From the sequence record SRR16203515_7935: 34,957 bases of DNA. The stretch is one strand, 5' to 3'. The notes under the pieces were generated by a model. It was not told the origin of the DNA. It did not search any database and was given only the letters and a program-made list of their open reading frames with translations. The position numbers and the translations under genes are program-made. Positions 11,450-28,901 of this stretch are shown piece by piece (positions within the stretch are counted from its first letter, which is position 1; each line of letters opens with the position of its first letter).

Positions 11450-11665
11450 GAAACGCCTTAAGACACCCACTCTTTGTTGGACACTCACTCCCCTTTATCG
11501 ACGGCCGAAACGCCTTAAGACACCCACTCTTTTTTGGACACTCACTCCCCTTTATCGACGGCCAACGGACAATCAACCAGGAATGTGGACATCCATCATC
11601 AAAACATGGGTGTCTTTATGAGTGAGTCGCTGCAAATAGGTGTCTTTATCTACGATGGGTGTCTT
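11450..11665. repeat. GACACCCA-motif cluster 1, including a 57-bp tandem duplication
   Basis: 57-bp units at 11450-11506 and 11507-11563 (1 mismatch). Forward motif copies at 11462, 11480, 11519, 11537 and 11588; reverse copies at 11606, 11636 and 11655. Confidence 0.9.
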
Positions 11666-11694
11666 AACTTTTGCGTTAACCTATGCAAGCGCGT

Positions 11695-13194
11695 CTATTG
11701 TTTAGCCGCTTGAATAGCTAACCCTTCACAGACCGAGTTAAATGCATCATTTTCAAGACGTGGCAGGCCTTTTAAAAGTTCCTCATAAAGGGCGTCTATG
11801 ATTATCGGCGACAGACTCATCCCCCCTGTGATCATTACCACTTCCGGTTTATCACTGGCTTTTTCCAGGCACTCAACCACCAAAGCTTTTACCTTGCTAA
11901 GCCATGGTTTCAACGCAGTTTTAAGCGCATCTTTACTTATAATCACATCAAAATCATCTTCTACATAATGCAGGGGCAATGTAATGACATCTTTGCTCGA
12001 CAATAACTCTTTCGCCATTCTTACTGAGTTAACTAAGCGTGCGGATAATTTATTTTCTTGCACTAGTAGCAAGCGCTCTAACTGCTGAGGATCTTTGGTG
12101 ATCGACATGGTCTGCGCAATCGCTAATCCATAATCATCGGAGAAAAAGCGGGTGAGCGCGGGTATATTATCTACCGCACACATATCTGAAAAATATGTCG
12201 GTGGCACAGGTAAGCCGTTAATGGTTTTAAGTCCCATGCCCATTTCCGGCGCTACCGCCTTTAATAATAAGCTCTTATCGCAATCCATCCCGCCGAGTCG
12301 CCTACCGGTTACTGATAAAACATCATCACGCCTATCAAGTTGATTGGTTCTGTCAGGTGAAAGATTAATGCAGCAGATGTCCGTGGTCCCGCCCCCTATA
12401 TCGACAATCAACGCTGTCGTGTCACGAGATAGGGTTTGTTCTATTTTGTAGGCAGCAGCGATCGGCTCATCAAGAAAGTTTACTTTTTTGAAACCGGCGA
12501 TAGAGGCTGCTTGAGTCATTATTTCAATGGCTTGACTATTACCTGCCTCCCCTCGCGTACCGTGAAACTTCACCGGTCTGCCTATTACAGCGGAGGTAAC
12601 TGTAGTATTAAGCTGCTGCTGCGCACACTGCTTGAAATAAGCTAATTGTTTACCGATGATACCCACAAACGCTTTTTTCTGATCGTTATCTAATGACGCA
12701 CCTAAGAAGTTTTTAGGTGAATAAATAAGCCGGCCTTTATCGGGCATCTTAAGGAAACGTTTGAAGCCCTCTTCACCAAACGCAAACTTCCCCGTTTCCA
12801 CTAATCGCAGTAAGGGTATTTCGTCTAGCGACATAACGTGCATCAGTTGTTGTATCGCTTTTCGTTGTAACGCCGGTTTATTGTGGTAGTCGCCACGCAG
12901 GTCGTCGATACGATTGCTGAATACCGCTTGCTCTTTGGGATCTTTCGCCGAATAGTAGCCTTGCTTAGCTTTATCTATCTGATCATTGATGGCACGTTGC
13001 AACTGAGCGACTTTTACCTCCACCATTTCGTCTGGCGGTGGCGGTAATTCGTCTTCAAAGTAAATAAAAACTGAAGAACGAATTTTGCTGCCATGCTTTA
13101 TTAGCGGATCAAGCTTAATGTGCCTGTGGGTAGCACCGTCAAAGTACACCGCTTCGGAGTTTGATGTACCGTAATCAATCCCAATTGCCGTCAT
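11695..13194 (-). CDS. Hsp70-family ATPase, YegD-like (no C-terminal substrate-binding domain)
   Basis: Motifs IGIDYGTSNS, SPKNFLG, VIGRPVKF, EPIAAA, DIGGGTTD and ITGGMS; the protein ends right after the nucleotide-binding domain. Confidence 0.82.
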   Translation of the reverse strand: MTAIGIDYGTSNSEAVYFDGATHRHIKLDPLIKHGSKIRSSVFIYFEDELPPPPDEMVEVKVAQLQRAINDQIDKAKQGYYSAKDPKEQAVFSNRIDDLRGDYHNKPALQRKAIQQLMHVMSLDEIPLLRLVETGKFAFGEEGFKRFLKMPDKGRLIYSPKNFLGASLDNDQKKAFVGIIGKQLAYFKQCAQQQLNTTVTSAVIGRPVKFHGTRGEAGNSQAIEIMTQAASIAGFKKVNFLDEPIAAAYKIEQTLSRDTTALIVDIGGGTTDICCINLSPDRTNQLDRRDDVLSVTGRRLGGMDCDKSLLLKAVAPEMGMGLKTINGLPVPPTYFSDMCAVDNIPALTRFFSDDYGLAIAQTMSITKDPQQLERLLLVQENKLSARLVNSVRMAKELLSSKDVITLPLHYVEDDFDVIISKDALKTALKPWLSKVKALVVECLEKASDKPEVVMITGGMSLSPIIIDALYEELLKGLPRLENDAFNSVCEGLAIQAAKQ

Positions 13195-13384
13195 AATCAT
13201 TGTTTAATCAGAAGTTTGGCGGGAATTGTAAATGAAAAGCTGGCAACGGTCACATTACGCTTAAGATAAATTATCTGCCGCGCAAGAACGCTCTATTCTG
13301 TTATCAAAAATCTGACTCAAACCGAACCTAACTTTATCTACCAATAAAGCTTCTCTGCGGTTGGCAATATTACAAAGCGATAAA

Positions 13385-14314
13385 TTAAGAAGCCTGCTTA
13401 CGTTGCGCAATAACCACACTTATTTTGGAGGAAAAGCGAGTCTCAATATTGTTTGCCATGTGAAACCACACGCTGTTATCCAAGCCAACTTGGCTTAAGA
13501 TTGGTTCACTATTAGCGGAGAGGACGCCGTAGGACTTCATTGTTAGCCTGCGCCCTGTGTAGTCAACCAACGTCAAATAATCTTCAAGTGTGAAAGGGAG
13601 GCCTTTTTTAGCATCTTTACTAGCAACACCTGTAAAGGGCATTAGTTTGCGGGGCTGTTGATGATTCTTTTCAGCCTTAATCCGACGTTGAATACTGGTA
13701 TGTTCAGATTTCTCTAATGTCGTTGCTTTGCCAGCACGAATAGGATTTAAATCAACATACGCCATACACGCCAATAACGCAGCTTCGTCTAACAAAGCCT
13801 GTGATTTGAAACGACCTTCCCAAAAACGTCCGGTACATTCGTCTTCTTTGTTCGCTAACCTAGCAATGTACTCGTTCAATAAACGCATGAACCAGCTTAT
13901 GTCATACAACCTTTTTCGATAAATCGACACGCTAGACAGTACACTTTGCTGCTCAACTTCAGACAGTGAGGCTCGTGATTTTGGGTTCATATACCGACGT
14001 GTCAACGTGGTACCTTTATGCAACTTATGCCAGCGACGTAACACGTCTTCTGCACTCAACGACAGCGCTTGCTGCTTATCAACGTGCAATACCAGGTGAG
14101 TGTGATTACTCATTATCGCAAACGCACACACATCAATAGCAAACACACTTGCAAGTTTGAGTAATCGGTTTTCTACCCACTGTCTACGGTGCTCGTAACT
14201 TTTGCCGCTGAAAAAATCGCTCCCACACAAAAATGCCCGCCTAACGCATCGCGATACGCAATGATAATAGGCTGTGGTGTCCAAACAAATAAGTGATTTT
14301 CTTGGCTGTGGCAT
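13385..14314 (-). mobile_element. HUH/Y1 transposase of the IS200/IS605 superfamily, RAYT-like (long, about 310 aa type)
   Basis: Motifs YYHCVSRCVRRAFLCG, HUH motif MSNHTHLVL, FWEGRFKSQ and catalytic Tyr in AYVDLNPIRAG. No tnpB and no terminal inverted repeats; flanked by short-motif clusters. Confidence 0.88.
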
Positions 14315-14399
14315 AGGAGCGCTAGGCTAGTAAAGAATACCATTTAATATGAATGATAAAATTTGCCTACGGAACTGACCTGAGGGATAGAAAAGAATG

Positions 14400-14660
14400 A
14401 TGGATGTCTAGTTAGGGTATTGTTCTAAGTGGATGTCCATTTACTTTCTTTTGCGGGTGTCTATTAATGCGGGTGCTAGAATATCTTTTTGGGTTTATAA
14501 CACCGAAGAAGAGATTGAAAAAACTATCAAAGCCATAAAAGCCCTTGTTGATTTAGTAAAACGCTAATTGTTATTGGCTACTGAGTTTTACCGAGTAGAT
14601 AGTCAGAGTTCACTTACCATGCATTTATTGTCTCATTACGGGTGTCTATAAATGCGGGTG
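14400..14660. repeat. Motif cluster 2 upstream of the RAYT-like gene, with 22-bp direct repeats
   Basis: ATGGATGTC at 14400, GTGGATGTC at 14429, CGGGTGTCTATTAATGCGGGTG at 14454-14475 and CGGGTGTCTATAAATGCGGGTG at 14639-14660. Confidence 0.8.
14475..14567 (+). pseudogene. Orphan 3' fragment resembling the C-terminus of a class-V aminotransferase / cysteine desulfurase
   Basis: Translates as ARISFWVYNTEEEIEKTIKAIKALVDLVKR*, matching the R-x-S-F-x-x-Y-N-T-x-E-E-I motif of SufS/CsdA-like enzymes. The upstream body of the gene is absent. Confidence 0.6.
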
Positions 14661-14725
14661 GCTGAAAACATCATCACTCCATGCTACAGTGAGTAAAAAC
14701 TCAAATAACAAACACGAAGTTATCT

Positions 14726-15145
14726 ATGACAGCCTCTACTCCTTTAGTTACCTCTTTCGACGTACGCTTTTGTGAAACTGACGCCCTACAACACGTCAGC
14801 AATACCGCGTTAGTGGCATGGTTTGAAGCCGCCCGCGAACCGATATTCCGTATGTTTACGCCCACCTTAGATTTGCAAAACTGGCCACTTATCCTTGCCA
14901 GTTACAAGGTCGATTTTCTCGCGCAAATTTTTTACGGCCAGCCGGTTACGGTAAAAACCTTTATTAGTCGCTTAGGTAATAGTGCCTTTGATGTCTACCA
15001 AGAGCTGTGGCAACAAGACAAACTATGTGCCACAGGTATTACAACTATGGTGCATTTCGATTATCAAAATCAACGGTCCGCGCCCATTCCTGATGCGGTA
15101 AAAGCAGAATTACAAAGCCACTTTAAAGCATTAAGCGACGCGTAG
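14726..15145 (+). CDS. Acyl-CoA thioesterase, hotdog fold (4HBT/YbgC-like)
   Basis: Motif VRFCETDALQHVSN....WFEAAR; 139 aa. Confidence 0.85.
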   Translation: MTASTPLVTSFDVRFCETDALQHVSNTALVAWFEAAREPIFRMFTPTLDLQNWPLILASYKVDFLAQIFYGQPVTVKTFISRLGNSAFDVYQELWQQDKLCATGITTMVHFDYQNQRSAPIPDAVKAELQSHFKALSDA

Positions 15146-15159
15146 GAGAAAGACGCAGT

Positions 15160-15855
15160 ATGAGTGATTTAATTGAAGTCATCGATGACGTGTTATCGCC
15201 GGAATTATGTAACGAACTGATGGCGCGCTTTGAAAAAAGCCCTAACCTTACCCAAGGGCGCACAGGCGGCGGCGTCGATTTAGATAAAAAGCGCAGTACC
15301 GATGTATCAATTAGCCAAAATGCGGAGTTTGCTGATCTGTTTAAACAGGTTATGCAAGTGACCGGACAACAACTTGTTGCTTATATCGAAAAATATTACT
15401 TCGCGCTTGTCGGCCCCATGGGGCTAACGGTGCACCACCCCAAAACTGGCCAGCCTGTTAAGTTAACCGGGGAGAACTTCGATGAAGTGGGTAAACCTAA
15501 CTTGGCTAATTTGGTGAATTATCTCTATCGCGTAGGGGATATTAACGCGCAACGCTACACGGCCGGCGATGGTGGCTATCCATATTGGCATTCAGAAGTA
15601 TTCCCCCAGATGCCCCATAACGATGCCTTACACCGCGTATTGTTGTTCATGTTTTACTTAAACGATGTGGACGAAGGCGGAGAAACCGAGTTTTATTACC
15701 AAAACCGTGCCGTGAAACCTAAGGCGGGGCGTATGGTGATTGCACCCGCGTATTTTACTCATACCCATCGCGGCAATATTCCTAAGAGCAACGATAAATA
15801 TATCTTAACGTCATGGTTGCTGTATAACCGAGCCGAGCAAATTTACACCCAGTAG
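15160..15855 (+). CDS. 2OG-Fe(II) oxygenase
   Basis: Motifs WHSE (HxE), FYLNDVDEGGETEF, THTHRG and KYILTSW. Confidence 0.85.
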   Translation: MSDLIEVIDDVLSPELCNELMARFEKSPNLTQGRTGGGVDLDKKRSTDVSISQNAEFADLFKQVMQVTGQQLVAYIEKYYFALVGPMGLTVHHPKTGQPVKLTGENFDEVGKPNLANLVNYLYRVGDINAQRYTAGDGGYPYWHSEVFPQMPHNDALHRVLLFMFYLNDVDEGGETEFYYQNRAVKPKAGRMVIAPAYFTHTHRGNIPKSNDKYILTSWLLYNRAEQIYTQ

Positions 15856-15860
15856 AAGCG

Positions 15861-16346
15861 TTAAAACGCTTCTACTGCTTCGCCACTAAGTCGATAGCCT
15901 ACCGAGGCAATATCGCCCTGCCAGCCGTCGGTAGACAGTACGCCTGTCACCCAAATAGCATCGTAAATATTGTCAATCGCAATGCCTTCTTCAAATTTCA
16001 CGTAAACAATTTGATTTGAAGGGGGAGGCGGCACATGAATACAAGCGCCGAAGTAAGGCACCAATAAAAACTCTGTGGTGAGTTCATCCGTACCCTCTAA
16101 CGGCACGACAAAGCCAGGAATTTTAACCCGTTTTTGATTAAACCTATCCACAATGGGGGCATCAGGCTGTAACTGACTCATTTCGCCGTTGTGCTGAACC
16201 GAAGGTGGCGCCAGTTCATTAAAGCCTTCCGGCACTAAATCTTCCCAATAGACTTCTACAGGCTCATCCGCAGCGCGTGCTGACAATGAAAATATCGTCG
16301 TAAAGACACACAACAATGCCCATAAAGTTATCTTGTGATTGCGCAT
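15861..16346 (-). CDS. DUF3299-family exported protein
   Basis: Signal peptide, WEDLVP, VKIPGFVVPL and EFLLVPYFGACIHVPPPPSNQIVYV. Confidence 0.8.
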   Translation of the reverse strand: MRNHKITLWALLCVFTTIFSLSARAADEPVEVYWEDLVPEGFNELAPPSVQHNGEMSQLQPDAPIVDRFNQKRVKIPGFVVPLEGTDELTTEFLLVPYFGACIHVPPPPSNQIVYVKFEEGIAIDNIYDAIWVTGVLSTDGWQGDIASVGYRLSGEAVEAF

Positions 16347-16363
16347 AATTCTCTCTTACCAAT

Positions 16364-16392
16364 AAAAAAGGGCTGGTAGTAACCAGCCCTTT
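16364..16392 (-). terminator. Intrinsic terminator after ppa
   Basis: AAAGGGCTGGT-agta-ACCAGCCCTTT hairpin with an A-run on + (U-tract on -). Confidence 0.75.
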
Positions 16393-16418
16393 GTAACATT
16401 TATTTTAAGCAGGGTGAA

Positions 16419-16949
16419 TTATTCTGCTTCGAAACGCTCAACGCTAGAGACGATTTCAGCTTTCGCCGCTTCTGCATCTGCCCAGCCGTCAATCTTAACC
16501 CATTTACCTGGCTCAAGATCTTTATAGTGCTCGAAGAAGTGCTCGATTTGCTTAAGCAGCAGTGGTGGCACGTCAGAAATTTCTTTCACATCACGGTAAA
16601 TAGTAGAAAGCTTGTCTACCGGCACAGCCAATACTTTTGCGTCTTTACCTGACTCATCGGTCATGTTTAACACGCCAACAGGACGACATTTAATTACAGA
16701 GCCCGCAAGTAGTGGGAAAGGTGTCATCACAAGTACGTCTACCGGATCACCATCTTCAGATAAGGTGTTATTCACGTAGCCATAGTTTGTTGGGTAGTGC
16801 ATGCATGTCGCCATGAAGCGATCAACATACAATGCGCCTGTATCTTTATCTACTTCGTATTTCACCGGGTCAGCGTGCGCTGGAATTTCGATGATCACAT
16901 TCACTTCGTCTGGCAAGTTCTTGCCCGCAGGAACAGCACTTAAGCTCAT
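16419..16949 (-). CDS. ppa: Inorganic pyrophosphatase (family I)
   Basis: Motifs [27 protein letters not shown] and [10 protein letters not shown]. Confidence 0.97.
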
Positions 16950-17071
16950 TCTATAGTCCTTACAATGATATGTTAGAAATTTTGCCCGTAAGTATACGGT
17001 GACAACGGCAAAATAAAAATGGTTTACGACTCAAGTCGCATTAATCTGTTGTATTTTGCCGCTATTTTTAA

Positions 17072-18049
17072 CTATTCGCTCTTTTCAGCATAACTCAGGC
17101 ACATTTCTACTTCGCCTTTTGAGCCAATAAGACAAGGCACGCGTTGATGAATTTCTTCTGGCATCACTTCTAATATACGCCCCGTACCGGTTTCTGCCTT
17201 ACCGCCGGCTTGCTCCATTAAGAAGGCCATCGGGTTTGCTTCATATAACAAGCGCAGCTTGCCGGGTTTTGAAGGATCACGGTTGTCATAGGGGTACATA
17301 AAAATACCACCGCGGCATAACAAACGATGGATATCCCCTACCATGGCTGCCACCCAACGCATATTATAGTTTTTACCACGAGGGCCTTCTTTACCCGCTA
17401 ATAGATCAGCAATATAGGCTTGCATGGCCGGTTCCCAATGACGCTGATTTGACGCATTTATGGAGAACTCATTAGTCTCTTCGGGCACTTTAATATTGGG
17501 GTGAGTCAGTAGGAAGCCGCCGTGCGTTTTATCTAGGGTGTAGATATGAGTACCGCGCCCAGTGGTCAACGCCAACATGGTAGAGGGGCCATAAAGTACA
17601 TACCCCGCAGCCACTATTTGCGTGCCTGGCTGCAAAAATGCAGAAGGGTCATCAGGCTCCATCCACTGCGGCGCGTGGGTGATAGAAAAAATAGTACCTA
17701 TTAAACTGTTTATTTCGGTATTCGATGAACCATCTAGAGGGTCAAAACTCACTAGGTATTTGCCGTCGGGGTTACACGGCACAACATCATCTTCCTCTTC
17801 AGAGGAGATGGCTTTCACGTAGCCAGACTCACTCAGGGTGTCTTTTAAAATATGGTTTGAAATAACGTCGAGTTTCTTTTGAGTTTCACCCTGCACATTT
17901 TCTGACAAGGTTGACCCCAAAACACCTGCAAGTGCCCCTTGGCTTACACGGAAAGAGATTTCTTTACAGCCCGCGAGTAATGTACGGATAAGCAGAATAA
18001 GTTCAAGAGGCGCTCCGTCTTGCTGCAGTTGGGAGTTTAAACGTTTCAT
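17072..18049 (-). CDS. fbp: Fructose-1,6-bisphosphatase class 1
   Basis: Motifs [21 protein letters not shown] and [11 protein letters not shown]. Confidence 0.96.
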
Positions 18050-18339
18050 CTTTGTTAGCCTTTTTTGAGATATGTAGGGTATGACAATATAAGGCGCACA
18101 GTTTTCCTTACTGGCTGTCTCTTACGTTGCCAACAGCCGTTAAAATATAACGCCTGTTAGTTGATTGTAACCGTGAATGACAAGAAGGGAAACATTGAAG
18201 AATAAACCAGCACACAACCCATACCAGTTTACCGATTTAAACCGCGAGACATAAGTAAACCACTGAAATTTGGTTATTCAACCTATCCCAGCTTCTGATA
18301 AAGTACCCCCTAACTAGAACGTTTATATGAGAAAGCGCC

Positions 18340-19695
18340 ATGCACGTACATATTCTTGGGATCTGCGGCAGTTTTATGGGTGGCATTGCCGCTATTGCTA
18401 AGACGCTAGGCCATAAAGTGACGGGGTCGGATCACAATGTGTATCCGCCAATGAGCACCCAGCTAGAAGCGCTCGGGATAGAGCTTACTGAAGGCTACGA
18501 CAAAGCTCAGTTTGAGCCTGCCCCTGACATGGTGATTATTGGCAACGCTATGTCGAGAGGCAATCCTGCGGTGGAATTCGTCTTAAATAGAAATTTACCT
18601 TATACCAGTGGTCCTCAATGGTTGCTTGATAACCTGCTAAAAGACAGGTGGGTGATAGGCGCAAGCGGTACCCACGGTAAAACCACCACCAGTAGCATGA
18701 TTGCATGGATTTTAGAATATGCCGGGCTCAAGCCGGGCTACCTGATTGGCGGCGTACCTGAAAACTTTGGGGTATCTGCTCGCGTTGGCGAAAGCCCATT
18801 CTTTGTGATTGAAGCTGACGAATACGATAGTGCCTTTTTTGATAAACGCTCTAAGTTCGTGCATTACCGCCCCAAAACCCTCGTCATCAACAATTTAGAG
18901 TTTGATCATGCGGATATCTTCGCCAACTTAGCGGCGATCCAAACACAATTTCATCACTTGGTTCGCATGGTGCCAGAAAATGGTCTTATTTTAACCCCTA
19001 ACAATGAGACAGCCATAGAAGACACACTGGCGAAAGGCTGTTGGTCTGAGCGTCAATCCTTAGGCCAAGACTGGCAAGCCAAGCTGATTAATGATGATGG
19101 CAGCGCCTTTGATGTGCTTCACCATAATAAAACAGTGGGCACGGTGAATTGGACACTCATGGGACAACACAATGTAGACAATGCCCTTATGGCGCTGGCC
19201 GCCGCCCATCATGCCGGGGTTACCTTAAAAGATGCCATCGATGCGCTTGGTTCATTTAAAAATGTTAAGCGGCGTATGGAAACGAAGGGAAGCGTAAATG
19301 GGGTCACCGTCTACGACGACTTTGCTCATCACCCCACTGCCATTGCCACCACCCTTGATGGCTTACGAAAGAAGGTGGGTAAAGCACGGATATTGGCGGT
19401 ACTAGAGCCGCGCTCAAACACTATGAAGATGGGTGTCCACAAAGATACCTTGGTGGCATCGTGGCAACAGGCCGATGAAGTTTTCGTTTACGAACCTGAC
19501 GGTATGGACTGGTCACTGGCCGAGCGGGCCCAGCAAAGTCAGACACCCACACAATGTTTTAATGAAGTTGAAGCGATCGTACAGCAGCTGTCGCGCGTAA
19601 GTGAGCCCGGTGATCATATTCTTATTATGAGTAATGGTGGCTTTGAAGGTATTCATCAGCGCGTGCTTAGTGCGCTTAACGAGGTAACACCATGA
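18340..19695 (+). CDS. mpl: Murein peptide ligase (UDP-MurNAc:tripeptide ligase)
   Basis: Motifs [46 protein letters not shown] and [10 protein letters not shown]; divergent from fbp, as in many gammaproteobacteria. Confidence 0.95.
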
Positions 19696-20324
19696 AATAT
19701 GATAAACAAGTCACCCTGGCCATCACTGGCGCGTCTGGCGCACCTTATGCGCTTACCTTGCTCAACTCTTTAGTGAAAGCCGACTATCAGGTGTATGTAT
19801 TAATTTCTTCTGCGGCGAAAGTAGTTTTCGCGACAGAAGAGAATCTTAAGATCCCTGCCCGTCCCGAAGATGCTGCGGCTTTTTTTACCGAGCACTGCGG
19901 TGGTACGCCAGATCAAATTCGCGTATTCGGGAAAGAGGAATGGTTTTCTCCGGTGGCGTCAGGCTCAGCGGCTCCCGCTAAGATGGTGGTATGTCCATGC
20001 TCTACAGGTACCCTATCTTCCATTGCTGTGGGTGCTAGTGACAACTTAATCGAGCGCGCCGCGGATGTGGTGTTGAAAGAGCGCGGGCAACTGATTTTGG
20101 TGCCACGGGAAATGCCGCTATCCTCTATTCACTTAGAGAACATGCTAAAGTTATCTCAGATGGGAGCCACTATTATGCCCGCCGCACCTGGCTTTTATCA
20201 CAATCCGAAAACCATTGATGACCTGGTGGATTTTGTGGTTGCGCGTATCTTAGATCATTTAGGCATTGCACAATCGCTAGTGGCACGTTGGGGCTATCAA
20301 ACATCTAAACATGCTAAGGAATAA
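19692..20324 (+). CDS. ubiX: Flavin prenyltransferase
   Basis: Motifs [33 protein letters not shown] and PAAPGFY. Confidence 0.94.
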
Positions 20325-20326
20325 CT

Positions 20327-21133
20327 ATGCCAGCGTTGAAGAGTAAGGTGCTTACGGTTGTGCTCGGTAGTCTGCTTACTGCCATAATGAGCGCGCCGGC
20401 ATTGGGCTGGGGCCAAACTGGCCATCGCGTCACTGGTGCCATTGCACAACAATATTTAAGCCCGCTATCACAAGCGGCATTAATGGAGTTGCTTCCTAAT
20501 AGCTCGTTGGCAGAAGCGTCTACCTATGCCGATGAAATGCTTTCCCACCCCAGTGAATTTTGGCAAAAGGCATCTAAGCCGTGGCACTATGTCACGGTTC
20601 CAAAAGGGAAAAGTTACCCTGAAATAGGTGCCCCCAATGAAGGCGACGCACTCAGTGCACTGAAACAATTTACGGAAACCTTGCGAAGTCCCTCCGCCAG
20701 TATTGATGAAAAACGACTAGCATTACACTTTGTCGTGCACCTGATAGGTGACTTACATCAACCATTACATGCGGGAAACGGTACTGATCTTGGGGGGAAC
20801 ACCACCAAAGTGCGCTTTTTCTGGCAAGACTCCAATTTACATCGTGTGTGGGACACACAAATGCTAAGCCAACGGCAACTGTCCTACACCGAGTGGACAA
20901 CAAGGCTAACCCGCAAAATCACCGCCGAGGATATCCGCAACTGGGCCAGCACAGATCCGCTTATTTGGGTGGAAGAAAGTATAAAAATACGTGACGAAAT
21001 TTACCCTGAAGATAGTAATAACATGGGCTATGACTATTTATATGATCACTTACCCACTGTCACTACTCGCCTCAAAATGGCGGGGATTCGCATGGCCATG
21101 TACTTAAACCAGGTCTTTGATCACCCGCAGTAA
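20327..21133 (+). CDS. S1/P1-family nuclease, secreted
   Basis: Signal peptide followed by WGQTGH (mature N-terminal Trp), ADEM, WHY, HLIGDLHQPLH and NLHRVWD. Confidence 0.88.
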   Translation: MPALKSKVLTVVLGSLLTAIMSAPALGWGQTGHRVTGAIAQQYLSPLSQAALMELLPNSSLAEASTYADEMLSHPSEFWQKASKPWHYVTVPKGKSYPEIGAPNEGDALSALKQFTETLRSPSASIDEKRLALHFVVHLIGDLHQPLHAGNGTDLGGNTTKVRFFWQDSNLHRVWDTQMLSQRQLSYTEWTTRLTRKITAEDIRNWASTDPLIWVEESIKIRDEIYPEDSNNMGYDYLYDHLPTVTTRLKMAGIRMAMYLNQVFDHPQ

Positions 21134-21153
21134 TCGATGGGAACGGGTGAATC

Positions 21154-21185
21154 AAAAAACCGAAGGTACAATACCTTCGGTTTTT
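21154..21185. terminator. Bidirectional intrinsic terminator between the nuclease gene and rraA
   Basis: AAAAAACCGAAGGTA-caa-TACCTTCGGTTTTTT, lying between convergent genes. Confidence 0.85.
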
Positions 21186-21211
21186 GTTTTAACGCCGGTT
21201 AATGCGCTCGC

Positions 21212-21697
21212 TTAATCTAAATCGAGTGGCTCTGGCGATAATATAACGCCAGTGCTGTCGGCATATAAATGATCTTCGGGTAAGAAAGTCACCCCACCGA
21301 AATTAACCGGCACATCCACATCGCCAATGCTTTCACTTTCGGCGTTTACTGGGATGGCTGCTACTGCCAACACGCCAATGTCCATGTCAGCCAGAGAATC
21401 TACTTCACGCACACTGCCATAGCACACTATGCCTTCCCAGTCGTTTTCAATGGCCATTTGTACTGACGAAGCATCAATAAGGGCACGTCGCGTTGAACCG
21501 CCGCCATCAATGAGCAATACTTTTCCTGAGCCAGGTTGCGCTAAGACGCGGTCTACCAACCCTCTATCTTCAAAGCACTTCACGGTGGTTATCTCACCAC
21601 CAAAGGAATATCGCCCACCATAACTTGCGAATATAGGGTCTACTACGTCAACGCTGTCTGCAAATAAATCGCATAATTCGGAAGTGTTGTAATCCAT
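21212..21697 (-). CDS. rraA: Regulator of ribonuclease activity A (RraA family)
   Basis: Motifs [33 protein letters not shown] and DHLYADSTG; 161 aa. Confidence 0.9.
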
Positions 21698-21975
21698 TGC
21701 TCTGCCTTACTTAAAATGAGGGAAGTAAATAATCCACTATGGTTAGCATAGCATTTATTTGTGTAGTGAAAATGTTTGATTTAGGTGGCATGGGAGAAAG
21801 TTATCTCAACACAGGCTAAACCTATCGACAAAGATGAAACACTAGCACCTTTTGAATAATGAGTATAAAAATTGCTTACCTCACTCTGGGTATTTAATTT
21901 TGCCCCATATATCAGCACTGTCAGGACAGCGAGTGTAATAACGCAGGACGAGTCTTGCGCATCTGGCTTTACGAT

Positions 21976-22103
21976 AAAAGTGGGTGTCTCAAGCTATTAG
22001 CGTAATCACCTATAAGCCTATATGTGGCGGCGGGTTGTTTACTATGGGTGTCTTGAAAATAGGTGGGTGTCCAGTGTGGTATGGGCGAAAAGGTGGGTGT
22101 CCA
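21976..22103. repeat. Motif cluster 3 (four co-oriented TGGGTGTC copies)
   Basis: TGGGTGTC at 21981, 22045, 22064 and 22094; AGGTGGGTGTCCA occurs twice, 30 bp apart. Confidence 0.85.
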
Positions 22104-22138
22104 AAAGTGACGCTATTGGCGCGCACCTAGTGGCGGGT

Positions 22139-22194
22139 ATGTCACAAAGGTTTCTTTTTTCTGTCACTGATTGGTCACAGTACCTTTCTAGCCT
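22139..22194 (+). promoter_or_regulatory. Pho-box-like (PhoB/OmpR-family) direct repeats with a -10-like hexamer
   Basis: ATGTCAC at 22139, CTGTCAC at 22161 and TGGTCAC at 22172 (spacings of 22 and 11 bp); TAGCCT starts 10 bp after the last half-site. Confidence 0.55.
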
Positions 22195-22228
22195 GTGCAC
22201 TAAATCATCGCAATGGGGACCAAGGCGG

Positions 22229-22747
22229 GTGAATTTAAAATCTCTTAATAAGTACGATACAACTCTGTTTTATCGGCTCTACCGTCTTACAGTGAAAAGA
22301 GACTGTCGTAGTATTATATGGCTGTCTAAAACCGGTGACGGCTATCTATACTTTGTCATCGGTATACTACTGTGGGCCTTTGAACCCCAACATGGTGAAT
22401 TGTTTCTGTATACCGCACTGATGGCCTATGGGTTAGAGTTACCTGTGTATGTATTACTTAAAAAAATGTTTAAGCGGCCACGCCCTTGCGATTTTTTGTT
22501 AAATTTAACCGCCCATGTCACCCCATCAGACAAATTCTCCTTGCCCTCAGGGCATACCGCCGCAGCCTGGTTAATGGCAGGCATTATTGCGCACTACTAC
22601 CCCCCATTTTCAGTTATCGCCTATAGCTGGGCTGGCCTCATTGGTCTTTCGCGCATATTGCTAGGCGTACACTACCCCACCGATGTGCTTACCGGCGCGG
22701 CACTGGGTTTGATTATTGCCTCATTGAGCATTACGATCTTGGGCTGA
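22229..22747 (+). CDS. PAP2-family membrane phosphatase
   Basis: Motifs KKMFKRPRP, PSGH and SRILLGVHYPTD. Start reassigned to GTG 22229, because the longer ORF-track N-terminus runs through the repeat cluster and promoter. Confidence 0.88.
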   Translation: MNLKSLNKYDTTLFYRLYRLTVKRDCRSIIWLSKTGDGYLYFVIGILLWAFEPQHGELFLYTALMAYGLELPVYVLLKKMFKRPRPCDFLLNLTAHVTPSDKFSLPSGHTAAAWLMAGIIAHYYPPFSVIAYSWAGLIGLSRILLGVHYPTDVLTGAALGLIIASLSITILG

Positions 22748-22748
22748 T

Positions 22749-23816
22749 ATGAAAATACTATACGGTGTGCAAGGCACGGGTAATGGACATATCGCTCGGG
22801 CAAGAATAATGGCAGCGGCGTTACAAAACCGCCCTGATATTGATGTCGATTTTATTTTTACCGGTAGAGCGGCAGAAAATTACTTCGATATGGAGGTATT
22901 TGGTAACTATCGCACGCTAACAGGGCTAAGTTTCATCACCCAAAATGGTCAGGTCGACCGCTGGGCCACCCTTCGTCAGGCAAAAATTAAACAGTTATAT
23001 CGTGACATTAAACAACTGGACACCCACCAGTATGACCTGCTGATTAACGACTTCGAGCCTGTCACTGCGTGGGCAGCAAAACAGCAAAACACACCTTCTA
23101 TCTCTATTAGCCATCAGGCGGCCTTTGCCTATAAGGTGCCAAAAGTGGGCGATAGTCTGACAGACAAACTGTTGATGAAAGGCTTCGCCCCTACAAATTA
23201 TCAACTCGGGGTGCACTGGTATCATTTTAATCAACCTATCATTCCCCCGTTTATTGCCGAAAAGCCTTCGCTGCTACCCTACTCTGGGGCCATCTTGGTA
23301 TATCTTCCCTTTGAAGAGTTAAGCAATATTCAACAAATGTTAGAGCCAATAAGCGATCATCGCTTTCAATGCTTTCACCCTCATATTCAGGCCCCTGAAG
23401 AGCACGGTCATATTCACTGGCACCCCACCTCTAAACTGCACTTTCAACAAGCCTTACAACAGTGTAACGGCGTTATTGCTAATGGCGGCTTTGAGCTTTC
23501 AAGCGAAGCCTTACAGCTTGGAAAAAAACTGCTTATCAAACCTCTGCATGGTCAATTTGAGCAACTGTCGAACGTACTGACACTTAGTAAACTCAATCTT
23601 TGTCACACACTTTTTCAGCTCGATACGGATGTCACTGAAGAGTGGCTAGACTCACCAGAGAATGAGGCTATCGGCTTCCCTGATGACCCTACATTATTGA
23701 TAGATTGGCTTAAAAAAGGCAGCTGGCACGATAGCCAAGAATTGTGTGATGCATTGTGGGCGAACGTACGTTACTCACAGAAAACCCAAGAACGCTTATT
23801 GTCTCTTGCATTTTAA
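22749..23816 (+). CDS. Glycosyltransferase, MJ1255/VC2487-like family
   Basis: Motifs MKILYGVQGTGNGHIARAR, INDFEPVTAWAA, NGGFELSSEAL and KPLHGQFEQLSN. Confidence 0.82.
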   Translation: MKILYGVQGTGNGHIARARIMAAALQNRPDIDVDFIFTGRAAENYFDMEVFGNYRTLTGLSFITQNGQVDRWATLRQAKIKQLYRDIKQLDTHQYDLLINDFEPVTAWAAKQQNTPSISISHQAAFAYKVPKVGDSLTDKLLMKGFAPTNYQLGVHWYHFNQPIIPPFIAEKPSLLPYSGAILVYLPFEELSNIQQMLEPISDHRFQCFHPHIQAPEEHGHIHWHPTSKLHFQQALQQCNGVIANGGFELSSEALQLGKKLLIKPLHGQFEQLSNVLTLSKLNLCHTLFQLDTDVTEEWLDSPENEAIGFPDDPTLLIDWLKKGSWHDSQELCDALWANVRYSQKTQERLLSLAF

Positions 23817-23867
23817 GCCCGCAATGCGATGATAGCGGCATTTGTTCTAGCTTTCGCGGGATTCTTC

Positions 23868-24044
23868 GTGCTTAAAAAGTGTGTTGTACTTACAGTTATC
23901 GCCATGGCATTGACAGGCTGTGGCTACAAAGGTGCGCTCTATATACCAGATGCGCCCAGCCAAAATACACCTCTTGATACGTCGGATGAGGCAGTGCCTG
24001 AAAATTCAACGCCCCCCGCCGCTACATTAGGAGATGCTAACTAG
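23868..24044 (+). CDS. Small lipoprotein (YifL/LppL/LptM-like)
   Basis: Lipobox and motif LTGCGYKGALYIP; conserved position upstream of lysA-dapF. The stop overlaps the lysA GTG. Confidence 0.8.
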   Translation: MLKKCVVLTVIAMALTGCGYKGALYIPDAPSQNTPLDTSDEAVPENSTPPAATLGDAN

Positions 24045-25294
24045 TGGATTTTTTTGCTTATAAAGACGGTCAATTGTTTGCCGAAGATGTTTCTGTGGCT
24101 ACTCTTGCGCAACAACATGGGACACCCCTTTATGTCTATTCTCGGGCCACATTAGAACGTCACTGGCACGCCTTCAATGATGCTATTGGCGAACATCCTC
24201 ACCTCATTTGTTACGCCGTAAAAGCCAACTCTAACTTAGGCGTGCTAAGCGCTCTGGCAAAATTGGGCTCAGGCTTTGACATAGTGTCTGGCGGTGAACT
24301 TGCTCGGGTTATCGAAGCTGGCGGTGATGCCAGCAAAGTGGTGTTCTCAGGCGTAGGTAAAAAGTCGGATGAAATTCGTTATGCCTTAGAGCAAGGCATT
24401 ATGTGCTTCAATGTTAAATCGGAACCTGAACTACACCGAATTAATGCGGTGGCGGAACGTTTGGGTAAACAAGCGCCGATATCGCTTCGTATCAACCCAG
24501 ACGTTGATGCGAAAACCCACCCCTATATTTCTACAGGTCTTAAAGCGAACAAATTTGGCATTGCCCGTGAACGCGCACTGCAAACTTATGAACTAGCCGC
24601 CTCCCTCCCCCATTTAAATGTGGTCGGGATGGACTGTCATATTGGCTCACAACTCACCGAAATTGGCCCTTTTGTGGATGCCCTTGAGCGTTTGCTAGTG
24701 CTTATTGACGAACTTGCGGAGCGCGGTATTGTTATCGAGCACCTCGATGTAGGTGGCGGCCTCGGCGTAACGTATGACAACGAACAACCGCCTCACCCGA
24801 AAGCCTATGCGGCGGCTATGGCAGAAAAGATGGAAGGGCGTAAAAACCTCAAGCTTATTCTTGAGCCGGGCCGCGCCATTGCCGCGAATGCGGGCATTAT
24901 GGTTACCGAGGTAGAATTTATTAAGCAAGGCGAAGAAAAGAGTTTCGCTATTGTTGATGCAGCAATGAATGATTTACTTCGCCCAGCGCTTTATTCCGCG
25001 TGGCAGAATATTATTCCGGTTGTGCAAGGCTCTAACGCCACACCCCATACTTATGATGTGGTGGGACCTGTGTGTGAAACCGGCGATTTCATCGGCAAAG
25101 ACAGAGAATTAGCCATTAGTGCTGGCGATTTACTGGCGGTGCGAAGCGCGGGCGCCTACGGCTTTACCATGGCCTCAAACTACAACAGTCGTTGTCGTCC
25201 CGCCGAAATTATGGTGGATGGTGATGAAGCAATTGTGGTGCGCGAACGAGAAATTCTAAAAGATCTCTGGAAAGGTGAGCACAAACTTACGTAA
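24044..25294 (+). CDS. lysA: Diaminopimelate decarboxylase
   Basis: Motifs YAVKANS (PLP Lys), [21 protein letters not shown] and SNYN. Confidence 0.97.
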
Positions 25295-25328
25295 ACTAGG
25301 GAAAATACAAAATAAAGATGCGCAGTTA

Positions 25329-26159
25329 ATGCAGGTTCAGTTTTCAAAAATGCACGGTCTGGGTAATGACTTCATGGTGATCGATAACGTCACCCAGAAC
25401 GTCTTTTTCTCTAAAGACAAAATTCAGCAGTTGGCCAATCGCAATTTCGGTATTGGCTTCGACCAGTTGCTTATGGTTGAGCCACCTTACGATCCGGAAC
25501 AGGATTTTCATTACCGCATCTTTAATGCCGACGGCTCAGAAGTAGAGCAGTGTGGTAACGGCGCTCGGTGCTTTGCCCGTTTTGTGAAACAGAAAGGGTT
25601 AATTAATCGCAACAAGATTGTGGTAAGTACCAAAGCAGGCAAAATGGTGTTGTACCTAGAAAAAGATGGTCAAGTTACCGTCAACATGGGTAAACCTGAG
25701 TTTGCACCGGCAGAGATCCCGTTAAAGGCCAACAAGCAAGAAAACACCTATATCCTGCGCGTGGACGAGCAAACCTTGTTTGTCGGCTCAGTATCTATGG
25801 GTAATCCCCATTGTGTGATTGAAGTAGACGATGTAGATACCGCTGCCGTATTAGATATTGGCCCACAAGTAGAGCGACACGAACGCTTTCCTGAAGGCGT
25901 CAATGTTGGCTTTATGCAAATCATCAACGATTCGCATATTCGGCTACGGGTCTTTGAACGCGGCTCGGGAGAAACACTTGCCTGTGGCAGTGGTGCGTGC
26001 GCCGCGGTTGCAATCGGTCAAATTCAAGGTAAATTAAGCAAGGATGTCCGGGTTGACTTACCCGGTGGCAGTTTAAGGATCCGCTGGCCGGGCCCTGACA
26101 GCGTATTGAAAATGACTGGGCCTGCTGAGCATGTCTACGATGGACAAATAAACTTATGA
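25329..26159 (+). CDS. dapF: Diaminopimelate epimerase
   Basis: Motifs [24 protein letters not shown] and [13 protein letters not shown]; start ATG 25329. Confidence 0.97.
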
Positions 26160-26851
26160 GTGAAATTTCAGGGCAATCTAGCGCTTCTGCCGTAGTAGAG
26201 GTATTTTCTGGTGACAATGATTTGTCGCCTGCGGATGTATATGCGTATTTAGTTAAGCACCCTGAATTTTTCGCACAACACCCCGAACTCGCCGATAAAA
26301 TTAAAATACCCCATGAGCAAAAGGGCAGCGTATCACTGGTTGAAATTCAAAGTGAGCAGCTGCGCAAGAAGGTGCGCCACCTCAATTATAAGCTCTCTCA
26401 GCTGGTGAGTATTGCCAAGCAAAATGAGAAAATTTATCGGGTGTATACCGATTTAAATGTGCAACTGCTACGCTGTAAAAGCGTTGCCGAAGTACAATTT
26501 ACGCTAGAAGACGTGCTACAAGAACGATTGCAGTTATCTTCTGCGGTGATCAAAAGCTTCAAAGGCCCCCACGCGATTCCCGAATTGCAGCGTCGTCTTT
26601 TTACCGAAAAGCGTTTTAAGAATTCATCTTTCTTTTTCGGCCGATTATCCCAGCACGAACGCCAGTTGTTGTTTGCGGAAAATGACGCTGAATCAGTGGC
26701 ATTGATGCTACTGGGCGACAACCAAGAGCTCGGTATTTTAGGTATTAGTAGCAGCGATGCCACTCACTTTACACCAGATATGGACACCTTGCTTTTAATG
26801 CAGTTACAACAGGTGCTGAACATTATTTTACCTGAGATGATGGGGTATTAG
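26156..26851 (+). CDS. DUF484-family protein (YigA-like)
   Basis: Motifs [15 protein letters not shown] and HFTPDMDTL; conserved position between dapF and xerC. Confidence 0.85.
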
Positions 26852-26856
26852 GCTTA

Positions 26857-27762
26857 GTGGCAACGAAGCCGGTACTCAGTGATGCCTGCCAACATTGGCT
26901 GGATAAGTTCTTACTGCATTTACAGGTCGAACGTGGCCTTTCTCAACATACTCTAAGTAATTATCGACGCCAGTTGGTCGATATCGCCCATACCTTAGCA
27001 CTTGATGAATGGTCGGGGATCACCCCCGCCGATGTAAAGCGGGTAATGGCGGCGGCAAAAATGGCGGGGCATAAACCCCGTAGTATCGCACTTCGCTTAT
27101 CGGCATTACGCACCTTCAGCCTGTATCTTATTGAGCAGAAGCAACTTTTCAGCAACCCGGTAGAGGGCATTTCGGCTCCTAAACAAGGTAAACCCTTGCC
27201 AAAGCAGTTAAGTGTGGATGAAATGCAGCAACTGTTAAATGGTGAAACCGATGAAGGTATTATATGCCGCGACACAGCGATGTTCGAGCTACTGTACGGC
27301 TGCGGATTGCGGTTAAGTGAACTTACTGGGTTAAATTTGAGTGACTATCAGCGAGACGGTACGCTACGGGTAACAGGTAAAGGCAGTAAGCAACGTCAGT
27401 TGCCCCTTGGCCGACAAGCACAAAAGGCACTTAACGCGTGGCTTAAAGTAAGGCCTGCTTACACCACCCCTTATGAGACCGCTATCTTTGTCAGTAAGCG
27501 CAAGACCCGCATTTCCAATCGACAAGTGGCAAATCGATTAAACCAAATGGCCGAGCAACAAAGCCTCAGTCAAAAAGTGAGTCCACACAAACTGCGCCAT
27601 TCCTTTGCTACTCACGTATTAGAGTCAAGCGGTGACTTACGTGCGGTTCAAGAGCTGTTAGGCCATGCAAACTTATCGACCACGCAAGTGTATACCCACT
27701 TAGACTTTCAGCATCTTGCAAAAGTGTACGACGCCGCACATCCTCGCGCACACAAAAAATAA
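26857..27762 (+). CDS. xerC: Tyrosine recombinase XerC
   Basis: Motifs YGCGLRLSE, GKGSKQR, HKLRHSFATH and LLGHANLSTTQVYTHLDFQHLA; dapF-yigA-xerC synteny. Confidence 0.95.
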   Translation: MATKPVLSDACQHWLDKFLLHLQVERGLSQHTLSNYRRQLVDIAHTLALDEWSGITPADVKRVMAAAKMAGHKPRSIALRLSALRTFSLYLIEQKQLFSNPVEGISAPKQGKPLPKQLSVDEMQQLLNGETDEGIICRDTAMFELLYGCGLRLSELTGLNLSDYQRDGTLRVTGKGSKQRQLPLGRQAQKALNAWLKVRPAYTTPYETAIFVSKRKTRISNRQVANRLNQMAEQQSLSQKVSPHKLRHSFATHVLESSGDLRAVQELLGHANLSTTQVYTHLDFQHLAKVYDAAHPRAHKK

Positions 27763-27779
27763 CAAGGCTAAGCTTACCT

Positions 27780-28535
27780 ATGCAGTTTTTTCGCCCTCTT
27801 TCTGCCGTCAAAGCCATCACATTTGACTTAGATGACACCCTTTACGATAACGAACCTATTATTCGCCGCGCCGAAACAGCATTGCGCCAACATATAAGCG
27901 ATAGCTACCCTAAAGCGGCGACCCTCAGCCCTAAACAATGGCATCAACTGAAAACCACGAGTATTTCAAACAACCCTAACCTGGCTTCAGATATGGGGGA
28001 GCTACGGCGCACCATACTTCGCATGGCGTTAGCCACCGATTTCGAAATCACTAGTAGTGAAAACAACGCGCAAAATACCGCCTTAGAAACAGCGGTAAGC
28101 GCGTGTTTCGATTGTTTTTATGATGCCAGAAGTGATTTTACACTGGCCGAAGATGTGCACCAGACATTGGCTTTATTGTCACAACATATGCCCTTAGTCG
28201 CTATTACCAATGGCAACGTCAATGCCAAGAAAGTGGGCATAGATAAATATTTTAAGCGTATTTACCATGCCAGTGTCACCCAGCCTATGAAACCCGCAAG
28301 GGCCATGTTTGATGAGGCTGCCCAAGCCCTTAGCCTGCCACCTGAGAATATTTTGCACGTAGGCGATAACTTACAAAAAGATATCTATGCTGCCATAAAT
28401 GCCGGCTTTCAATCGGCCTGGTTTGCCTGTAATAGGCCAATGCAACTCAGCGCAGAACCGGTTTCTGTCTTGCCCCACCTTGTGCTTGATAACCTAGCAG
28501 AACTCACCGTTTTTGCCCAATCCCCCAGCCGTTAA
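27780..28535 (+). CDS. HAD-family hydrolase (YigB-like)
   Basis: Motifs FDLDDTLYD, ITNGN, KP and HVGD; located downstream of xerC. Confidence 0.87.
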   Translation: MQFFRPLSAVKAITFDLDDTLYDNEPIIRRAETALRQHISDSYPKAATLSPKQWHQLKTTSISNNPNLASDMGELRRTILRMALATDFEITSSENNAQNTALETAVSACFDCFYDARSDFTLAEDVHQTLALLSQHMPLVAITNGNVNAKKVGIDKYFKRIYHASVTQPMKPARAMFDEAAQALSLPPENILHVGDNLQKDIYAAINAGFQSAWFACNRPMQLSAEPVSVLPHLVLDNLAELTVFAQSPSR

Positions 28536-28564
28536 CTAACCACTTAGTCTTTACCAGATAGTAG

Positions 28565-28895
28565 TGACCAGACACCTGACCAGACCAGACACCCACCTTT
28601 TCACGCTAATTAAGTGGGTGTCCGCGTTCTTATTCTCAGCTTTCGGACACCCATAGTTTAGTTACCATCACATGGGTGTCCGAATGTGAATTGTCCGAAT
28701 GGAGTTGATTCTGAATAAGGGCCTAAACGTGGTCGTTGACTCTGAATAAGGGCCTAAAGGTGGTCGAGAAAGTGCGTGTCCTGTATGAGTCCAGTGTGAA
28801 ACCAGACAAAAGAGCGCTAGCGAAAAATGGTATTGGACACCCACAATTAGGACTTTCGTTTTGTGGGTGTCTATGTCGAAATACGTGGGTGTCTT
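28565..28895. repeat. Motif cluster 4: three inverted GACACCCA...TGGGTGTC pairs plus a 31-bp tandem duplication
   Basis: Pairs at 28588/28614, 28646/28672 and 28836/28863; single copies at 28773 and 28885; 31-bp units at 28704-28734 and 28735-28765. Confidence 0.9.
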
Positions 28896-28901
28896 AGAGG
28901 C

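Follow-up and report, generated by a model that had tools for sequence, protein, structure and literature searches.

HUH enzymes cut single strands of DNA and remain bound to them through a tyrosine (PMC3479197, PMC8266576; what is said of these and all other cited papers holds for the parts of their text that were available). Here we analyse such an enzyme, encoded in a 34,957-nt stretch of sequence record SRR16203515_7935 (hereafter the window), together with a very short word, GACACCCA/TGGGTGTC, that recurs around its gene. The closest described family is TnpA-Y1 subclass 2.3, proteins of ~325 aa with a Y---NP motif and a ~55-aa insertion between beta3 and alphaC, present in several poorly conserved copies per Alteromonadales genome; Quentin et al. 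2018 found no REP-like sequence flanking the subclass 2.3 genes, and none of 26 TIRYTs fell in that subclass (PMC6006769). That survey gave subclass 2.3 no substrate; a candidate substrate, a candidate specificity residue and a predicted cut zone, as proposed below, would make the family directly assayable.

The locus and its relatives have in common with subclass 2.3 the Y---NP motif, a HuH-to-Y distance of 113-115, a long beta3-alphaC insertion, a length of ~310-330 aa and several diverged copies per Alteromonadales genome; they differ from the published description in having a defined end word, a correlation between residue and base, local copies and a halo of words in cis (PMC6006769). TIRYTs and their TIRtrons likewise have a Y1 gene between inverted repeats, which recur elsewhere as singles, dimers and groups, and the last five letters of the TIRYT consensus, GGGGWSAS, fit RGACAS. 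The terminal inverted repeats of TIRtrons are, however, long and go mostly with subclass 2.1 proteins having a C-terminal helix-turn-helix (HTH), whereas here the signal is 8-9 bases without a G run and the protein has no HTH; neither confinement near the gene nor retention in coding DNA is reported in the available parts of the TIRYT paper (PMC3733652). With the RAYT or TnpA-REP proteins and their REP, BIME and REPIN repeats, the system has in common the 4ER8 fold, a repeat proper to each enzyme, (predicted) cuts on either side and inverted doublets, but there is no GTAG foot or fixed hairpin here, and the spacers are unrelated and fast-changing (PMC3479197, PMC8266576, PMC5581495, 10.1101/2021.07.10.451892, 10.1101/2022.05.22.493013). 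As these systems are described, the repeats of a REPtron lie genome-wide, and its gene is immobile and in essence single-copy, whereas here the repeats are local and the gene multi-copy and mobile.

Hairpin REPs with a GT[AG]G foot do not describe the cluster flanking the gene, which is unfolded, has no such foot and gave no Rfam match. IS200/IS605 was also rejected, its Y---Q motif, short core-only protein and subterminal hairpins being replaced here by Y---NP, 309 aa and unfolded word ends; the lack of a target-site duplication is a feature that it does share. By its sequence features, the element appears to work like a TIRtron while failing the long repeats, GGGGWSAS and HTH, and to be neither a REPtron nor an IS200/IS605 element. 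An earlier note on this DNA had proposed an undescribed system, a claim that has to be narrowed: the protein family is known and fits subclass 2.3, and TIRtrons with dispersed repeat families are described as well. In the literature covered (open papers and some supplements, with ISfinder and subscription journals outside the scope), no description turned up of the word itself, of its halo, of the link with residue 163 or of the retention in coding DNA. As far as this search reaches, what is new is the local halo, the paralog-specific variants that follow residue 163, the strain-variable arrays and the coding retention. Our best explanation of the whole, which we consider reasonably probable, is that a cis-acting nuclease nicks beside the word, duplicates or captures DNA there, and biases the retention of its sites.

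The nuclease and the word at its ends

13385..14314, minus strand: gene of a TnpA-Y1 subclass 2.3 HUH/tyrosine nuclease, 309 aa, with H71, H73, Y186 and N190, and with Arg163 (GACAC-type residue)

The intact HUH/Y1 gene described by the earlier note is indeed present, as an open reading frame (ORF) of 309 aa with H71-T-H73 and Y186-VDL-N190-P. The protein is no classical RAYT, scoring 39.8 bits against a cut-off of 80 with the RAYT model NF047646 (NCBIfam). The predicted structure (pLDDT 93) finds its best fold match in TnpA-REP 4ER8 (Z 13.8, root-mean-square deviation 2.8, 158 residues aligned) and has helices over residues 80-136, between a strand at 71-78 and a helix at 139-158; a sequence-profile search of solved structures gave no match. 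Y1_Tnp, just above its cut-off, is the sole Pfam match at E up to 10, the C-terminal HTH models Bac_DnaA_C, HTH_23 and HTH_28 giving none at that level. In an alignment of 130 sequences (the query and 129 of the 150 matches listed), H71, H73, N155, E157, G162, R168 and Y186 are invariant (130/130). The HuH-to-Y distance is 113-115 aa, for which the subclass 2.3 description gives ~110. On all features examined the nuclease appears to be a subclass 2.3 member, an assignment made by published feature descriptions. Orthologs and paralogs show dN/dS (nonsynonymous over synonymous rates) of ~0.1, and paralogs are 70-94% identical in DNA. No relative was found among phage records and viral contigs; a plasmid collection held 13 records with one, mostly very large replicons.

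The relation of word to gene was read from 79 related loci, taken from the best 80 of 457 confirmed relatives. An inward-facing word lies within 150 bp upstream of the gene in 71 of the 79, an outward-facing one in two. Counting any left word, the figure is 76/79, and a right word is present in 70 of the 77 loci with a readable stop; the left word stands at a median of 91 bp from the start and the right word at a median of 207 bp from the stop. Counts of the exact word are highest in the 500 bp next to the gene, where upstream copies are mostly forward and downstream copies mostly reversed. Paralogs in Vibrio and in Paraglaciecola are alike from the left word on, and in the closest pairs as far as the right word, while two copies in genome G050, 97.8% identical and 2.2 kb apart, share 11-12 nt beyond each word. 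Target-site duplications showed no excess over shuffled pairs at 68 loci, where old insertions could have lost them. At the yegD-thioesterase junction, where the window gene lies, 17 of 30 genomes are empty and word-free, two carry the gene, and 11 carry other genes; the gene is present there in G012 too. By these patterns the word marks both ends of the element, facing inward. Replitron-1, too, is a transposon of the HUH class whose end words are very short, whose ends are fuzzy and take flanking bases along, and whose duplications vary, but its enzyme is of the eukaryotic Rep class, its ends are direct where these are inverted, and the available text reports no local halo (PMC10288648).

The window holds 21 exact copies of GACACCCA/TGGGTGTC, whereas shuffled sequence holds 0.69 on average and never more than 3. 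Four intergenic clusters stand out:

11450..11663, no single strand: uvrA-yegD cluster, five copies on the plus and three on the minus strand, with a 57-bp tandem duplication at 11450-11563
14401..14660, minus strand: left-end array, four one-mismatch copies (14401, 14430, 14454, 14639) pointing into the nuclease gene
21976..22102, minus strand: rraA-PAP2 cluster, four exact copies in one direction
28566..28893, no single strand: HAD-cysE cluster, seven exact copies and one variant, with three inward stem-loop pairs and short stutter duplications

Our recount agrees with the 15 exact and nine one-mismatch copies that the earlier note had placed in these clusters, and the other 15 of the 19 intergenic gaps are, as it stated, without an exact copy; its listing overlooked six further exact copies inside genes (7134, 7518, 7556, 19430, 19542, 23019), far more than orthologous DNA of gene-less genomes contains. 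The cluster that it put about 85 bp upstream of the gene has its nearest copy 87 bp before the start, and contains no exact copy but four one-mismatch ones, whose polarity agrees with that of the 71 of 79 relatives. The word itself is non-palindromic, as claimed, yet at 28586-28873 each of three inward pairs folds into a stem-loop (z -3.8 to -7.8); no folding was found in the 14.4 kb (z -1.5 and 0.1) and 22.0 kb clusters. The window word is one variant of GACA[CG][CTG]CA, the family consensus being RGACA[CG][CTG]CAY (RGACASBCAY), with little information beyond positions -1 to +8.

The HAD-cysE cluster is present at the same site in one of 30 other genomes, and in the rraA-PAP2 gap Alteromonas profundi (L001) has a cluster with unalignable spacers and L047 has none. 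Read by eye, the HAD-cysE gap (window 28536-28901; L081-L101) holds in 15 of the 30 other genomes a different inverted dimer, which fits GGGGWSAS, the TIRYT consensus, with a variable spacer, so a described kind of repeat uses the same site. Beginning at an ATG at 22022, the PAP2 frame runs without a stop across the repeat array (22022-22138); its aligned start is probably 22139, and the array could add 39 residues. A promoter scan gave results at chance level.

A halo of words around the gene copies

Genome-wide counts were taken from relatives of the window. Four complete genomes (G012, G031, G079 and G003; G025 was left out, and gene fragments were not counted as genes) hold 67 dimer clusters, 52 of which do not directly flank a gene. 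Of these 52, 30 are at most 10 kb from a gene copy, where 1.0 would be expected; the count rises to 42 at 30 kb (expectation 3.3) and to 46 at 100 kb (expectation 10.7). In G052, with one gene match on a single chromosome, 15/15 clustered copies and 21/61 copies overall are at most 40 kb away (0.7 expected), and in G053 all ten clusters lie within 27 kb of a gene copy. Outside such halos the density of the word equals the background. Spread in trans, which the earlier note had inferred, is not supported by this pattern: the words stay within some 30 kb of a gene copy, or about 80 kb at the most, as expected of action in cis, and we hold it quite likely that the enzyme acts in cis. The halo would then be a genomic record of cis action, readable paralog by paralog. 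Local gene copies occur in G050, G053, G012 and G134. At L248 (G053, 296-306 kb), where two gene copies 99% identical lie 7.3 kb apart, the left end of the element and the start of its gene are duplicated in a nested fashion.

Word number also follows gene number. Over a genus set of 79 genomes, 67 with a gene match (up to 20 matches) and 12 without, dimer count tracks gene copy number with rho 0.75, the reversed-motif control giving -0.01; PF01797 missed the gene in four genomes known to carry it, so absence by that model is uninformative. Among the 12 genomes lacking a match the median is 3 dimers, the control level; equal abundance without the gene, which the earlier note had named as fatal to its proposal, is thus not seen. 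In the 40 kb orthologous to the window, seven gene-less genomes have no exact intergenic copy and the window and G001 have 13-15, a count in which ORF calling scores two array copies of the window as coding.

The variant of the word changes with the enzyme. The alignment column that best separates word variants is residue 163, in G-x-FWEGRF. Where it is Arg (n=47), the innermost left word reads GACAC at 37 loci, GACAG at two and GACAT at six, with none at two; where it is His (n=32), it reads GACAG at 30, GACAC at none and GACAT at one, with none at one. At right ends GACAG stands at eight Arg163 loci, so Arg is less strict. Three halos on the one chromosome of G012 use different variants, GACAGTCA at 1.58 Mb, GACACCCA at 2.54 Mb and GACAGGCA at 2.72 Mb, and four Tyr163/Arg167 copies have GACAGTCA halos. 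A rapid tree search, not run to completion, places the His163 types in two separate clades; the 2.72 Mb copy of G012, 67% identical to the window protein and with His163 and a GACAG halo, is not among the sequences of that tree. Shared ancestry limits the link to about three independent changes. K91, Q95, R97 and W99 of TnpA-REP contact DNA (PMC3479197), and by motif register the loop of residue 163 may correspond to that stretch. The spelling of the E. coli TnpA-REP loop we take to be W-Q-x-R-F-W.

These results bear on the idea that the word serves the host, as the site of a transcription factor, as a terminator or in some other regulatory role, or else is due to chance, the nearness of the nuclease being incidental. 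In favour of such a site, the clusters lie in intergenic gaps, often where genes converge, and stem-loops can be formed by some pairs. Against it, the word is absent from the same gaps in gene-less genomes, is at control level in the 12 genomes without a gene match, differs between strains, switches with residue 163 and has no tie to gene function. Copy-number tracking, gene-less orthologous DNA and the residue-163 link rule a host site out unless some host factor is linked to every gene copy, and we regard it as extremely improbable. That the word belongs to the nuclease, as the earlier note supposed, is borne out by the inward flank in 71/79 loci, the scaling with copy number, the change with residue 163 and the variation between strains, and the word is very probably the cognate site of the enzyme.

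Changing arrays and words inside genes

Strain contigs from seawater runs (X1, X3 and X5), ~0.4-3% different from the window in long pieces, differ in three of its four clusters, so the invariance that the earlier note expected of a transcription-factor site is not seen. At 11.4-11.65 kb, run X1 lacks one 57-bp unit and has 13 substitutions in 41 bp (11610-11650). At 14.4 kb, a run X3 contig lacks 185 bp between the words at 14454 and 14639, and at 28.6-28.8 kb, runs X1, X3 and X5 show a 30-bp word-containing duplication and losses of 17, 31, 49 and 127 bp. Several loose ends on the window in runs X5 and X6 presumably are artefacts, as they resemble library adapter tails. Between close species the words persist and the spacers become unalignable.

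An exact tandem duplication ends at the 5' edge of the word at 61 of 1008 sites, compared with 0/94, 11/2848 and 1/841 in controls, and many of the word-abutting duplications are without microhomology. Most of their ends gather between -3 and +4 and others between +9 and +14, and direct neighbours stand less than 18 bp apart in only 4 of 341 cases. Larger pieces are involved as well:

14476..14638, plus strand: AT-rich insert of 163 bp that carries the 3' terminal part of a class-V-aminotransferase-like gene and lies between direct repeats of 22 bp (14454 and 14639; motif + 14 nt)

The 185-bp segment is this insert plus one 22-bp repeat, and the insert is absent from the run X3 contig and from L001. 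Its gene tail has a weak C-terminal match to Pfam PF00266 (E 0.052, below cut-off). A search of 201 family genomes gave no close source, the best match being 54% identical, and two metagenome pattern scans gave 0 matches. In G003 a word-bounded host segment of 0.75-0.9 kb with a 142-aa gene has been copied within and out of the halo, and in G025 a 1.4-kb stretch between 19-bp arrays has been copied. Side observations in G025 are long tandem arrays at L255, L256 and L258, with units of 19-48 bp mixing word variants; two of the arrays enclose a duplicated 1.4 kb that comprises a TetR-like gene and the first part of an efflux gene (names from translations). A CRISPR-like memory was rejected by the form and origin of the spacers, which have no fixed length and come largely from local duplication; no phage search with them was made. 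As read from these comparisons, arrays change by short word-abutting duplications, by duplication of whole units, and by capture or copying of word-bounded DNA.

Much of this could come from an ordinary TIRtron-type insertion sequence (IS) hopping locally, its clusters being leftover ends and miniature derivatives later expanded by slippage and RecA recombination, and its enzyme only moving ends. Nearby gene copies in G050, G053, G012 and G134, the word-bounded segment copied in G003 and the inward layout of an emptied element in many clusters all agree with that; dimers and clusters of terminal inverted repeats are described for TIRYTs (PMC3733652), and cis preference is known for IS5 and IS903 (PMC11677980). 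The spacers of the window clusters, however, match neither one another nor the inner ends of the element, the stutters abut single words, often without microhomology, and the 18-bp spacing floor is left unexplained. Isolated coding copies, described next, arise by codon change without indels and persist, unlike the scars of hopping. We judge local hopping alone to be unlikely.

The exact copies inside genes of the window are these:

7134..7563, no single strand: MFS transporter gene, three isolated exact copies (7134, 7518, 7556), by codon changes without indels in an alignment with 10 genomes
19430..19549, no single strand: Mur ligase gene, two isolated exact copies, present elsewhere only in G001 and G012 (Arg-type gene at the locus)
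23019..23026, plus strand: glycosyltransferase gene, one isolated exact copy, in the window and G001 only

Among the alignments listed, most coding copies are codon changes without indels. A count of the word family over 28 kb of orthologous coding DNA (28 genes) gave 12, 14, 12 and 5 copies for four gene-bearing genomes, of which the window and G001 are close and not independent, and 1-5 copies for seven without the gene (p 0.007). In four halos of the pair G031/G079, isolated coding GACACCCA sites are common to both genomes at 17 of 20 (expected fraction 0.25), compared with 2 of 7 (expected 0.31) in 238 kb far from gene copies (Fisher p 0.011); the density of coding sites is 6.4-fold higher in the halos and their loss ~11-fold slower. 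Other pairs have 4/4 (G008/G052), 3/4 (window/G001, expected 0.07) and 2/7 (G001/G012, expected 0.05) in common, and one-mismatch words show no such coding retention. Near Arg-type genes, coding words are denser and more slowly lost, and selection and drive both fit this retention. If it is drive, the enzyme of a mobile element shapes codons and amino acids of unrelated neighbour genes.

DNA uptake sequences of Pasteurellaceae and Neisseria offer a parallel, being non-palindromic words of 9-10 bases that gather in coding DNA via codon changes; they are, however, genome-wide and driven by the uptake machinery, whereas the words here lie within tens of kb round a nuclease gene, with arrays and duplications (PMC2817400). 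The likeness is one of analogy, not kinship. Two observations touch insertions in coding frames. At L141 and L144 (G031 ~2.304 Mb, G079 ~1.690 Mb), word copies and intervening sequence lie inside a long ORF, apparently as an in-frame insertion. This ORF looks to us like a biotin carboxylase subunit. In the HAD hydrolase of G021, ortholog of window 27780-28535, there is a four-codon insertion with GACAGTCA, absent from 10 other genomes.

Coding retention is also what a selected binding landscape would give, in which the protein is mainly a local DNA binder, the sites are kept to titrate a toxic nuclease, regulate its gene or organise the region, and rearrangements are side effects. The word is strictly kept while spacers diverge, the spacing minimum is 18 bp, both strands are used (in 12 halos, by a check of replication-strand bias), and the gene has stayed at one locus across species with dN/dS ~0.1; weak purifying selection would equally give the ~11-fold slower loss and 6-fold density of coding sites. 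This account does not sit well with the invariance of the catalytic H71, H73 and Y186 (130/130) or with the recent movement of the element, and the gene is missing from the site in most relatives, which argues against an essential regional role. We consider it rather improbable.

A proposed cis-acting nuclease and the case against it

On the explanation that we favour, this would be an IS-like element of subclass 2.3 whose whole end signal is the non-hairpin word of 8-9 bases, RGACA[C/G][C/T/G]CA. Working in cis, the enzyme would bind the word with a footprint of ~18 nt and nick the TGGGTGTC strand right beside the word, either on its 3' side (about -3 to +4) or on its 5' side (about +9 to +14); the nick is placed on that strand because the fixed end of a duplication is taken to mark it. 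It would stay attached via Tyr186 while a host polymerase extends the free 3' end by a few to tens of bases through displacement synthesis, and would then join this extended 3' end, or one from foreign DNA, back onto the 5' end that was displaced. Such a cycle may leave a stutter beside the word, add one more unit of word plus spacer, or give an insert with a duplication around it, and where two words serve as ends, the gene or a host segment would move. With a signal so short, chance matches in the neighbourhood could serve as substrates or ends, and word-bearing alleles, favoured by biased conversion or weak selection, would let sites accumulate in nearby genes. Elements of this scheme have precedents: TnpA-REP cleaves 5' or 3' of its site, and any 3'-OH can resolve the link (PMC8266576, PMC3479197). 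For the nick-and-displace chemistry specifically, deduced from sequence, we would put the chances at slightly under even.

Several observations weigh against this explanation. The middle residue of the HuH motif is Thr, outside the listed L/V/I/F/Y/M, and the gene copies of the window and L001 have no right (downstream) end word. Duplication ends spread over ~8 positions, with no single nick position; the choice of the TGGGTGTC strand rests on those ends, and direct-repeat arrays are unstable even without an enzyme. Six of the 52 non-flanking clusters are more than 100 kb from any gene. Three Pseudoalteromonas replicons and one Shewanella plasmid have end words only and no halo; G275 (7 matches, 1 dimer) and G276 have almost no dimers and no halo, unlike G277 with 112 dimers, and some gene-bearing Alteromonas genomes are nearly dimer-free (minimum 0 with 3-5 matches). 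Halos may thus need long residence or a more active lineage. G038 (L128-L129; C11, 247-282 kb) has an orphan halo, with no subclass 2.3 gene in the P0001 searches, to which this negative is limited; it is possibly a site that the gene has left. In His and Tyr halos there are 0-5 coding sites per pair, the retention effect being seen near Arg-type genes only, and substitutions beside coding words show no clear excess, only more gaps within 40 nt. The genomes compared are related and hence non-independent samples, and the tree behind the residue-163 link is the unfinished one.

A stronger form of the favoured explanation, which we offer tentatively as something rather doubtful, is a cis-acting sequence drive, in which the enzyme makes the 30-50 kb around its own gene a private domain, fixes its 8-base word in neighbouring coding genes by biased conversion, as a local counterpart of uptake sequences, uses the words for duplication, gene amplification and capture of foreign DNA, and is retargeted by one residue. 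If true, such a drive would amount to a self-imprinting system that diversifies the genome locally, a kind without description in the literature searched. For tool builders, too, an HUH ligase that is hairpin-free, has an 8-base word and can be switched at one residue would be of interest.

The window neighbourhood consists of ordinary chromosomal genes by Pfam families and is syntenic with Alteromonas profundi (L001) at 74-80% DNA identity. Its genes we take to be gal, uvrA, a yegD-like Hsp70, fbp, a Mur ligase, lysA, dapF, an integrase-family recombinase, cysE and uvrD. The orphan arrays of G038 adjoin an ECF sigma / anti-sigma / protease module (names read from translations). At window 18490-20733 strain contigs differ more (48/1861 and 64/2106 bases) than in other long pieces (0.4-1.7%), and the Mur ligase gene in this stretch carries four motif-family copies.

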